Assembly: GCA_022647725.1 (NCBI GenBank)
Contig: JALCLG010000001.1
Location: forward strand, 1,069,535 to 1,133,534
DNA length: 64,000 nucleotides
Direction: 5' to 3'
Source of the DNA: Bacilli bacterium
Lineage (GTDB): Bacteria > Bacillota_I > Bacilli_A > RFN20 > CAG-288
Both the position numbers and the translations under genes were made by a program. Positions 50,964-52,919 of this stretch are shown here, one piece after another (position 1 is the first letter of the stretch; each line of letters begins with the position of its first letter). Under the pieces are notes generated by a model, which had not been told where the DNA came from, did not search any database, and worked only from the letters and a program-made list of their open reading frames with translations.

Positions 50964-50972
50964 TTGCCTGAA

Positions 50973-51006
50973 AAGCCTCCGCTAAGGTCATTGCGGAGGC
51001 TTTTTT
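50973..51006 (+). terminator. Rho-independent terminator after rhaD
   Basis: The hairpin AAGCCTCCGCtaaggtcattGCGGAGGCTT is followed by TTTTT. Confidence 0.65.
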
Positions 51007-51100
51007 GGTGGTTAGATACGTAGTAGATAATCATCCTATCTTTCATCAAATAAGAAATGCCCATAATAAGGCGATATTTCGAAGGATTGTATCTTGCTTA

Positions 51101-51170
51101 TCAAATGACGTCAAATGAAATCAAATAAGAAATTAAGCCCAAAATGGACGATAGCGTCGATACCGATTGG
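51101..51170. repeat. Direct repeat A (GTCAAATGAAATCAA motifs plus the 3'-terminal coding region of the AlbA_2 gene)
   Basis: This copy is about 84% identical over roughly 62 nt to the copy at 52682..52743. Confidence 0.6.
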
Positions 51171-52593
51171 AATTTTGGGTACCGGCATATTTCAGCAGTC
51201 CTTTCTCTACGCAGCGAATTAAAAGCCGAGAAATGGTTGCTGCCTCTTTGCTACTGAAATTTAATCTTGTACGGACATCCTCATTGGAGGTGAGTTTGTC
51301 ATTGACTTCGTTATAACAGGAAAGAACATAGCAGGTATTGATACGGTCTTCTTCAGACCAATCCTTACGATTTTCATAATGACGGATGATGGTTCTTGAA
51401 TAATCGTTCTCAGCCACAAATACGGGTGATGGTTCTTTTATCTCGGCCATAGCTTCTTCAATCCGATCAAAGCCTGAGCTACGTTGCTCACAAATGGTGA
51501 CGCTGCGGAGAAAAGCAGCCATTTTTTCGTTTCGGCAGTGAGTGACGGTATCAATGAAACGAGCCGGATCAATCAAAGGCTTCCCTGGGGTTGTCATTTC
51601 AATGCGGAAAGGAAATACTTCAATAAGTGACTGGATACCCAAATGACTATAATCTTGATGGATAATGAGATTGCCAAGCATTTCACGTAAAGCTTCTTCG
51701 GGGAATAAGGGAAAAGTCTTTCTTAATCCGCCTTCTATTTTTTCTACCTGCGGGATTACTCCTCTAAGGAAACGGAGAATGTCTTCAAAAGATGCTGCAT
51801 ACCCCTTGGAAAAAGTTTCGTCTCCGATCGTGGACGTCCTTGAGTTACTGGAATACTTTAATATTCTCACTCCTTTTTCCTGAAGCCCTGGGAAGGATGA
51901 AAAATCATTAGCAAAAAGCAAGGCTCCCATATTTGTTATTGAAAAGGAGCCGGCATCATCTTTAACGATAAATCCTTCATCAAGAAAACTTTCAATAATA
52001 CGATCCATGCTGGTGGGTAAAGAAATTTTCTTTAAACGGAAATAGGCATTGAAGTCAAGCAAGGCTGCGACCTCTTCGGGTTTTAGGTGTGATTTGGAAA
52101 GACTGGTTTCAAAACTTTTTCCTCGAATTGCGGAAAATAGTTCTACTTCTCTGGCGGGAACGTCTTGCTTCTTTTTGAGGCTCGAACCGACACGGTAGTA
52201 ACTCATATTCTCAAAGCAAGTTGGTTCATAGAAGGCAGCAGGAATTTCTAAAAGTGATACTGGTTTTCCTTCTGAATAAAAGAAACGATAAGGGCGTAGA
52301 GCAAGGTTTGGTGAAAGCAAACGATTGATCCAATTTAATAGAAGCTCGCCGCTTTTCCTGGCTTCAAGGATGTTAAAAGAGGTTCCGATGACGTCGTGCT
52401 TTTCTCCGTCCTGTATTCCCCAAACAAGATAACCGCATTCCTTTCCAGCAATGGCGGCTTCGTTACTTAAAGCCGAAATATACTGGCCGAGGAGTTCTGG
52501 TGAAGCGTTGCTATCTTTGAATTCGACCCATTCACATTCACCTTTCTTACTTCTTAGCTCATCCACGAGTTCTTTATAATAGGAATCTTCCAT
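51133..52593 (-). CDS. AlbA_2 (Schlafen-like) DNA-binding domain plus divergent-AAA/HATPase-like protein (often annotated as RecG-related transcriptional regulator)
   Basis: The N-terminus E...WVEFKDSNASPELLGQYISALSNEAAIAGKECGYLVWGIQDG matches the AlbA_2 domain. The protein is 486 aa. Confidence 0.6.
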   Translation of the reverse strand: MEDSYYKELVDELRSKKGECEWVEFKDSNASPELLGQYISALSNEAAIAGKECGYLVWGIQDGEKHDVIGTSFNILEARKSGELLLNWINRLLSPNLALRPYRFFYSEGKPVSLLEIPAAFYEPTCFENMSYYRVGSSLKKKQDVPAREVELFSAIRGKSFETSLSKSHLKPEEVAALLDFNAYFRLKKISLPTSMDRIIESFLDEGFIVKDDAGSFSITNMGALLFANDFSSFPGLQEKGVRILKYSSNSRTSTIGDETFSKGYAASFEDILRFLRGVIPQVEKIEGGLRKTFPLFPEEALREMLGNLIIHQDYSHLGIQSLIEVFPFRIEMTTPGKPLIDPARFIDTVTHCRNEKMAAFLRSVTICEQRSSGFDRIEEAMAEIKEPSPVFVAENDYSRTIIRHYENRKDWSEEDRINTCYVLSCYNEVNDKLTSNEDVRTRLNFSSKEAATISRLLIRCVEKGLLKYAGTQNSNRYRRYRPFWA

Positions 52594-52660
52594 TTTGATT
52601 ACCTCTCTGTCAAATGAAAAGCATCGATAATTACCTTATATTATAAAGGTTTTATTAATT

Positions 52661-52745
52661 GTGTCAAATGAAATCAAATAACGTCAAATGAAATCAAGTA
52701 AGAAATGAAGCTCAAAGTGGTCGATAGCATCGAGATCAATTCGAC
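52661..52745. repeat. Direct repeat B: two GTCAAATGAAATCAA motifs plus a degenerate remnant of a homologous gene 3' end
   Basis: It aligns to 51109..51170. The reverse-strand reading contains ...RCYRPL*, a degenerate version of the intact gene's C-terminal NRYRRYRPFWA. Confidence 0.55.
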
Positions 52746-52919
52746 CCGGGAACAATGACTTATTCAAGAAAAACTGCTTTTGATCGCAGCCGGATATAAA
52801 GCAAGCCACAGTCACCAGAAAGTTTTGACATGAAATATATATGTCACGTTGAAAATTGGCGAAGGAACGAACTCCTTTTGCCTTTTTATACGCCTATAAA
52901 AACGATATAATATTTCTAT

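Follow-up and report, generated by a model that had tools for sequence, protein, structure and literature searches.

Prokaryotic Schlafen (pSlfn) proteins are built around a domain with an RNase fold, for which a catalytic Ex4(E/D)xK motif has been defined. Their commonest architecture is HisKinase-HTH (histidine-kinase-like and helix-turn-helix domains), and Schlafen-HisKinase(-HTH) fusions make up around half of all prokaryotic Schlafens (PMC13056530). In the published test set, defence was confined to a DUF262 fusion and an Ig-like fusion; the HisKinase fusions tested were negative, and the HisKinase-HTH class is without demonstrated function, trigger or control (PMC13056530). No cis element is reported for pSlfn genes in that work, which covers roughly 6,000 of them. 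The gene cj1552c is annotated mloB (PMC9769813), and some records of the family are likewise annotated MloB. The locus described here lies in a 64-kb stretch of a Bacilli bacterium genome (GCA_022647725.1, contig JALCLG010000001.1, positions 1,069,535 to 1,133,534), hereafter the window, to which all coordinates refer. It contains a Schlafen gene of the HisKinase-HTH class, bracketed by two copies of a module of short tandem repeats. The tandem units of one copy begin just past the stop codon, as do homologous arrays in most of the relatives examined.

A Schlafen-HisKinase-HTH protein

51133..52593, minus strand: Schlafen gene, 486 aa, with a Slfn/AlbA_2 nuclease domain, a GHKL/HisKinase-like domain and a C-terminal winged helix

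Searches against Pfam gave matches to PF04326 (SLFN_AlbA_2; E 1.1e-12, 49 bits against a cutoff of 25.3) and PF13749 (HATPase_c_4; E 5.4e-12, 46 bits against a cutoff of 26). In the full-length AlphaFold model (pLDDT 87.9) the N-domain is Schlafen-like, the central domain resembles those of GHKL/histidine kinases, and residues 414-483 at the C-terminus form a winged helix (helices 414-430, 437-444 and 448-463 plus a two-strand wing). Foldseek matched this model to DIP2311 (3lmm), which has the same architecture, to the N-domain of SLFN13 and to histidine-kinase CA domains. A single-sequence model of the isolated C-terminal domain (pLDDT 60) was too poor for a structure search. The Ex4(E/D)xK motif is intact (E19-CEWV-E24-F-K26), and E19, E24 and K26 are invariant in an alignment of 29 sequences. 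As the Schlafen, HATPase and winged-helix domains and the Ex4ExK motif are all present, the protein is a member of the pSlfn-HisKinase-HTH class (MloB/COG2865 type, also labelled 'ATP-binding protein'). The initial annotation had named it an AlbA_2/Schlafen-like ATPase; the Schlafen assignment holds, and 'ATPase' is a domain label only for what is a Schlafen-nuclease/GHKL-like/winged-helix fusion. PADLOC returned no model match of note for the protein, and the NCBIfam and PDB sequence searches gave nothing useful.

Two copies of a repeat module bracket the gene

A repeat scan of the window revealed a direct repeat of 72 nt (85% identity, spacing 1573) at 51100-51171 and 52673-52744, and gapped alignment stretches the similarity to about 135 nt (51040-51171 and 52605-52744). 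The only long open reading frame (ORF) in the bracketed region is the Schlafen gene. Each copy is composed of tandem 10-nt units, three at 51100-51129 and four at 52663-52702, accompanied by single extra units at 52609-52619 and, in degenerate form, at 51045-51058. The order is the same in both copies, namely coding end, block of units, spacer and single unit, and they differ by one extra unit. The 15-mer GTCAAATGAAATCAA has three exact matches, at 51110, 52663 and 52683; allowing up to two mismatches adds no other in the 64 kb, for an expected count of 0.27. The repeat scan gave no significant inverted repeats at the bracket boundaries; the sites are tandem direct repeats. The elements of the two modules are as follows.

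51133..51171, minus strand: true 3′ coding end (..NRYRRYRPFWA*), part of the direct repeat
51100..51129, minus strand: 3′ module, block 1: a tandem run of three 10-nt units, 3 nt past the stop codon, on the gene strand TTATTTGAT TTCATTTGAC GTCATTTGAT
51045..51058, minus strand: 3′ module, block 2: one degenerate unit 75 nt past the first block-1 unit, on the gene strand ATTTCTTATTTGAT
52706..52744, minus strand: pseudo-3′ end, reading N*SRCYRPL*AS, in which the last 37-39 coding bases recur in degenerate form
52663..52702, minus strand: upstream module, block 1: a tandem run of four 10-nt units, of which the one nearest the promoter provides the predicted -35 hexamer
52609..52628, minus strand: upstream module, block 2: within the 5′ untranslated region (UTR), directly upstream of the ribosome-binding site, on the gene strand ATCGATGCTTTTCATTTGAC
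52602-52607: ribosome-binding site GAGAGG of the Schlafen gene
50971..51004: bidirectional terminator hairpin of rhaD and the Schlafen gene, with 12-nt perfect arms, a 10-nt loop and A and T runs

On the gene strand, the entire 3′ module sits upstream of this terminator. The two coding ends agree at 29/37 nt, a similarity equalled by 0/2000 shuffles, and the far copy (..SRCYRPL*) is a broken version of the last 37-39 coding bases, that is, a degenerate homologous 3′ end. Much of this had been seen before: repeats of about 62 bp and 84% identity, a partial motif near 52607..52620 (here 52609-52619), the true C-terminus in one copy and its broken counterpart in the other. The repeats proved real and larger than reported, and the 10-nt periodicity, the unit at 51045-51058 and the extent of about 135 nt had been missed. 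Beyond the pseudo-3′ end, a tblastn comparison of 52745-52831 gave 36% protein similarity over 42 residues, which is not significant (E 0.24); the remnant may extend by about 90 nt.

A stop-adjacent array is conserved across the family

Thirty relative loci (28-71% protein identity, the more distant ones 28-44%) were taken from metagenomes, IMG/VR contigs, plasmids and an E. coli chromosome, and the DNA past their stop codons was inspected. In 27/30 loci, two to five tandem direct repeats with an 11-nt period start 0-25 nt past the stop codon. These repeats, usually two of them, recur in a second block 55-130 nt beyond the first on the same strand. Block 1 of the 3′ module in the window is homologous to these stop-adjacent blocks. 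Spanning Firmicutes and Proteobacteria, the arrays were found in Bacilli, Lachnospiraceae, IMG/VR contigs, the E. coli chromosome and plasmids of Providencia, Aliarcobacter, Cereibacter, Burkholderia, Desulfosarcina, Cupriavidus, Pseudosulfitobacter and Paracoccus. A tandem 9-mer with a period of 10-12 (at most one mismatch, within 69 nt at the stop) was present at 12 of the first 20 loci, compared with 1.5% among 1598 control windows drawn from these loci.

The units themselves are lineage-specific (TAACTTGCYGG, TTGCTTGATCG, TCGTTGATGGG, TAAGTTGATRG, GGGTTTTGATC, TTATTTGACTG and TATGTGACTGG, with TTTCATTTGAY in the window). Their period is 10 nt in the lineage of the window, L021 and L089 (relatives described below) and 11 nt in every other lineage examined. 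The E. coli block occurs exactly twice per genome in four carrier genomes, both times beside the gene, and elsewhere in 5,426 genomes only chance 22-mers were found.

What follows the array differs from locus to locus (type I restriction-modification (R-M) subunits, AIPR, a PLD anti-phage gene, agrB or a transposase), and in many cases the next gene is convergent. On these grounds the module belongs to the Schlafen gene itself and not to a fixed cargo, and a general role as the promoter of such a cargo was rejected. In three loci (L149, L186 and L187) and in the promoter copies of the window and L021, the next start codon comes 14-32 nt after block 2.

Family contexts are very varied and often defence-related (type I R-M, AIPR, retron and DUF1156/PLD genes). 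On the Aliarcobacter plasmid (L187) the gene and its array lie within hsdR-hsdM-Slfn-hsdS, on the Desulfosarcina plasmid (L192) the order is DUF1156-Slfn-PLD, and on the Providencia plasmid (L186) Slfn is followed by hsdR, all in the same orientation. In E. coli YZ22PE67 (L190, NZ_CP171874.1 48434-55954) the gene (51277-52746, with a 130-nt 3′ array) has a retron St85 pair on one side and, on the other, an integrase accompanied by P4-like primase/helicase genes. A metagenomic contig (L184:1993-10147; Logan SRR4449258, VKOM0100011553.1) encodes a 786-aa Schlafen-HisK-HTH protein, P0007, with a 300-aa N-terminal extension. The extension is unrelated, and P0007 was rejected as a record of a tandem fusion. 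Its gene is translationally coupled to that of a 1002-aa protein with a weak RdRP match. Beyond the repeat array are agrB, a LytTR regulator and a HATPase_c_5 kinase, and the nearby NikA-like and ParM-like genes point to a plasmid-like context.

The blocks are conserved between close relatives

The only closer homologue is P0002, a 71% identical protein found on three short contigs from Logan (L021-L023). Homology between the window and L021 at the DNA level spans exactly block to block (51111-52702), and the flanks differ. The P0002 locus has three module copies, one as promoter and one just past the stop codon. At 4-fold degenerate sites the window and L021 are 23% identical, i.e. saturated. 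Despite this, blocks TTATTTGATTTCATTTGAY and ATCGATGYTTYTYATTTGAT hardly vary among six copies of the module in three genomes, upstream block 2 included; the spacers have diverged. As near-identity is retained where synonymous sites are saturated, the blocks are under purifying selection as judged from these alignments.

All three P0002 contigs end inside or beside module copies, so the module may be multi-copy or variable in that organism. A pseudo-3′ end in the upstream modules of L021 was not significant.

A 17-mer motif scan of 596 Gb of genomes gave at least 100 scattered single chance matches; among the matches listed, only L089 is a true module. A scan of viral contigs with the motif gave chance matches only. 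The L089 copy (L089:2125-2200) is a solo module with both blocks intact, in a Bacillota metagenome-assembled genome (DAISHV010000017.1), with no Schlafen gene within 8 kb. It sits between a gene for a 301-aa membrane protein and a gene pair which, from inspection of the sequences by eye, we take to be AbiEi/AbiEii-like.

The upstream module coincides with a predicted promoter

52640..52667, minus strand: predicted sigma-A-type promoter of the Schlafen gene, TTGACA-16-TATAAT, 12/12 consensus positions
51086..51114, minus strand: decayed promoter-like site, TTGACG-17-TACAAT, 10/12, inside the 3′ module and facing the rhaD terminator

The site at 52667-52640 is the sole strong, correctly oriented promoter site between the Schlafen gene and the next gene. 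Its -35 hexamer is the last unit, on the gene strand, of block 1 in the upstream module. In the lineage of the window, the module thus doubles as the gene's predicted promoter and putative operator. Were the winged helix to bind the units, the Schlafen gene would be autorepressed.

One fixed arrangement at the edge of the rhamnose genes

The initial annotation had placed the gene inside the rhamnose-utilisation region, in a variable cassette site or hotspot. A closer inspection shows that it adjoins rhaBAD at the 3′ edge, with the rhaD terminator on one side and a lipoprotein gene, transcribed divergently, on the other. The neighbours are rhaBAD, a Flg_new/LRR_5 lipoprotein, an MBOAT protein and an MFS transporter; the gene is alone between sugar and envelope genes, with no defence-gene neighbourhood in the window. 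Its G+C content is 42%, compared with 50-55% in its neighbours, and on this basis it was probably acquired horizontally. No integrase, recombinase or transposase Pfam families were found within 6-8 kb on either side.

Same-species contigs were retrieved by exact-protein look-ups (Schlafen and RhaD) and by a metagenome scan with the neighbouring lipoprotein. Twenty contigs from many samples, all of one species-level lineage, are 99.3-100% identical over 50964-52919. The arrangement is identical in every one of them and in a 99.3% variant, and none has an empty site or an alternative cassette between the motif blocks. The same scans otherwise returned only non-syntenic distant relatives (L025, L026). 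The proposal of a variable cassette is not borne out by this comparison, since one arrangement is fixed in all 20 contigs and the motif is a family-wide array at the stop codon. The former presence of a homologous gene, also proposed, is upheld by the pseudo-3′ end; the replacement of one allele by another at an exchange site is not, as neither an alternative cassette nor a recombinase was found.

Two further elements were seen next to the gene. The promoter region of the 593-aa lipoprotein gene contains the palindrome TGACAT-N9-ATGTCA within a 23-nt imperfect inverted repeat (52820-52857), which could be an operator of that gene. The minus strand also has a terminator-like hairpin at 52791-52772.

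The array as a candidate site of the protein's own winged helix

Where loci have the same unit, they also agree in the residues that begin the predicted recognition helix: NKAxxSRII occurs with GTTGATGG, SSxSxSRLIK with TAACTTGCYGG and NxAxVSRVIK with TTGCTTGATCG. Two loci without repeats carry SA where others have SR. This correspondence is suggestive of recognition of the units by the protein. Moreover, a period of one helical turn, kept across unrelated units, points to a protein bound to one face of double-stranded DNA. From such sequence comparisons we lean towards the view that the array is the binding site of the protein's own winged helix, with the additional copy in the window lying at the promoter and mediating autoregulation.

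On this proposal the module would comprise the last coding bases, a tandem block of 10-11-nt repeats at the stop codon, a spacer of 55-130 nt and a second block. The repeats would be cognate double-stranded sites of the C-terminal winged helix, with several protomers aligned on one face of the helix and an oligomer bridging the two blocks. Since the last repeat is the -35 hexamer and block 2 is in the 5′ UTR, occupancy of the upstream module by the protein should repress its own transcription. The pseudo-3′ end beside the upstream block indicates that this copy used to form the tail of a gene homologous to the present one. Going by the preserved coding end, the simplest and most likely history would be an arrangement Slfn-module-Slfn-module from which the upstream gene was then deleted down to its last 37-39 bases. 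A former occupant would account for the bracket, and a cassette-exchange site would not be required.

Several observations weigh against this proposal. Relatives lack copies of the unit near their promoters, only the window and L021 having units on the promoter side, so autoregulation cannot be the general role of the module. An array of sites 3′ of the stop codon is also an odd position for an autoregulatory operator. The correspondence between units and recognition helices is inseparable from shared ancestry, and one locus (L188) retains its repeats despite having SV in place of SR. A tandem Slfn-Slfn pair was found in none of the 30 loci or 63 plasmid records. The pseudo-3′ end is 78% identical to the real end and is too preserved for an old neutral relic if it is as old as the split between the window and L021; it would have to be recent, gene-converted or under selection. 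Finally, the repeats are always on the coding strand, and recognisable terminators are usually beyond both blocks, which fits a role in RNA.

Alternative explanations

That last point is the starting place for a different account, in which the repeats act as RNA, transcribed in the 3′ UTR of the nuclease mRNA (in the window also in its 5′ UTR) and either bound by the Schlafen protein as a cis-encoded decoy or antitoxin (type III logic) or serving as a translational operator of the next gene. The strict coding-strand orientation from the stop codon onwards suits it, as do terminators beyond both blocks (L152, L156, L165 and the window), the closeness of block 2 to the next start codon in the loci given above and the RNase fold of the Slfn domain (PMC13056530). 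We nevertheless consider it unlikely. An 11-nt period across unrelated units fits the helical repeat of DNA better, the units track the recognition helix of the winged helix, and upstream block 1 overlaps the -35 hexamer and so would not be transcribed from that promoter. There is no Rfam match at the locus, and the repeats of type III antitoxins are much longer than these units. The variable cassette or defence hotspot of the initial annotation, in which an earlier allele was swapped by recombination within the 3′ end and motif block, is improbable to a similar degree. It draws on the reality of the pseudo-3′ end, on homology with L021 that runs exactly block to block between differing flanks, on P0002 contigs that all break inside modules, on the low G+C content of the gene and on the many contexts of its relatives, some inside other defence operons. 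Both blocks, however, are on the same (3′) side of the gene in 27/30 relatives and hence are not cassette boundaries. The 20 same-species contigs and the 99.3% variant have one fixed arrangement, no recombinase is encoded within about 8 kb, and an alternative gene between the blocks was never found.

The same position of both blocks across the family speaks against the direct repeats being ends or attachment sites of a small mobile element, which is very unlikely. Direct repeats do flank a single, compositionally foreign gene, and a solo module exists in another genome (L089). However, no transposase or integrase was found within 6-8 kb, the repeat includes coding sequence and a promoter, and 85% identity is unlike a target duplication or an att core. 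Chance similarity, or a generic intergenic repeat spread through genomes, is effectively refuted. The motif is AT-rich and as a 17-mer gives at least 100 scattered single matches in 596 Gb, but those listed are single and random except for L089; the similarity observed was reached by 0/2000 shuffles, the motif is confined to this locus in the 64 kb, and other genomes have homologous modules linked to this gene. A quite doubtful idea gives the array, as a private docking site that co-evolves with the protein, the role of a tether. Protein would be caught in cis as it is made and kept there as an inactive oligomer, and loss of the array's hold on infection would free a tRNA nuclease. Degradation, modification or displacement of the DNA during phage infection would be the trigger, the array would supply the missing 'antitoxin' or sensor of this defence class, and the promoter copy in the window would be a lineage-specific reuse for autoregulation.

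Significance

The array offers a concrete handle on the HisKinase-HTH Schlafens, which among bacterial Schlafens are the largest class still uncharacterised. From it follow a prediction for the DNA ligand of the HTH and a guide to the non-coding DNA that should be included in cloning, and representatives in E. coli (e.g. YZ22PE67) allow direct tests. For annotation, it explains recurring direct repeats beside mloB-like genes and cautions against reading them as the ends of mobile elements.

Comparison with known systems

Literature searches, which returned the recent pSlfn papers, gave no description of a repeat array beside these genes; the original Campylobacter mlo description may contain an earlier passing mention. 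In kind the array would be a known thing, an adjacent binding-site array of an HTH protein, unusual in its position at the stop codon of a nuclease gene. The gene shares with the pSlfn HisKinase-HTH/MloB class its three-domain architecture, the Ex4(E/D)xK motif and a patchy, defence-island-like distribution, and L187, between hsdM and hsdS, occupies the mloB position (PMC13056530; PMC9769813). It differs in that no cis element is reported for the class and in that the window gene stands alone.

Like an integron or gene cassette, the locus presents a single foreign gene bracketed by related sequence. However, the window has no integrase, attC-like inverted repeats or alternative cassettes, and its bracket includes a promoter and a pseudo coding end. 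In type III toxin-antitoxin systems (ToxIN-like), ToxI-type repeats, each about 34-36 nt long, precede the toxin gene with a terminator between. There too a gene for an endoribonuclease-type toxin is physically linked to tandem repeats on its own strand, whereas the Schlafen units are 10-11 nt long, lie downstream of the stop codon in two blocks and have no known processing sites.

Winged-helix regulators of the PhoB/OmpR type bind direct repeats of 10-11 bp that overlap the -35 hexamer. The combination of a winged helix with tandem repeats of one turn is found here as well, and the last repeat overlaps the -35 hexamer in the window. In contrast, the Schlafen protein is without a receiver domain, and most family members have no promoter at the array. 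The window promoter is already a perfect consensus, which makes repression more likely than activation.

In parC of plasmid R1, two clusters of 11-bp direct repeats flank the parMR promoter and are bound cooperatively by ParR, which thereby regulates its own operon. ParR is a ribbon-helix-helix centromere binder with sites upstream of its gene, whereas the Schlafen array is 3′ of the stop codon, has fewer repeats (2-5 plus 1-2) and belongs to a protein that carries a nuclease. What the two have in common is a pair of helically phased direct-repeat clusters beside the gene of the binder, or in the present case the putative binder, and in the window the upstream clusters likewise flank the core promoter. 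The phasing by about one helical turn that marks operator and iteron arrays was found both in the window (10 nt) and in its relatives (11 nt).

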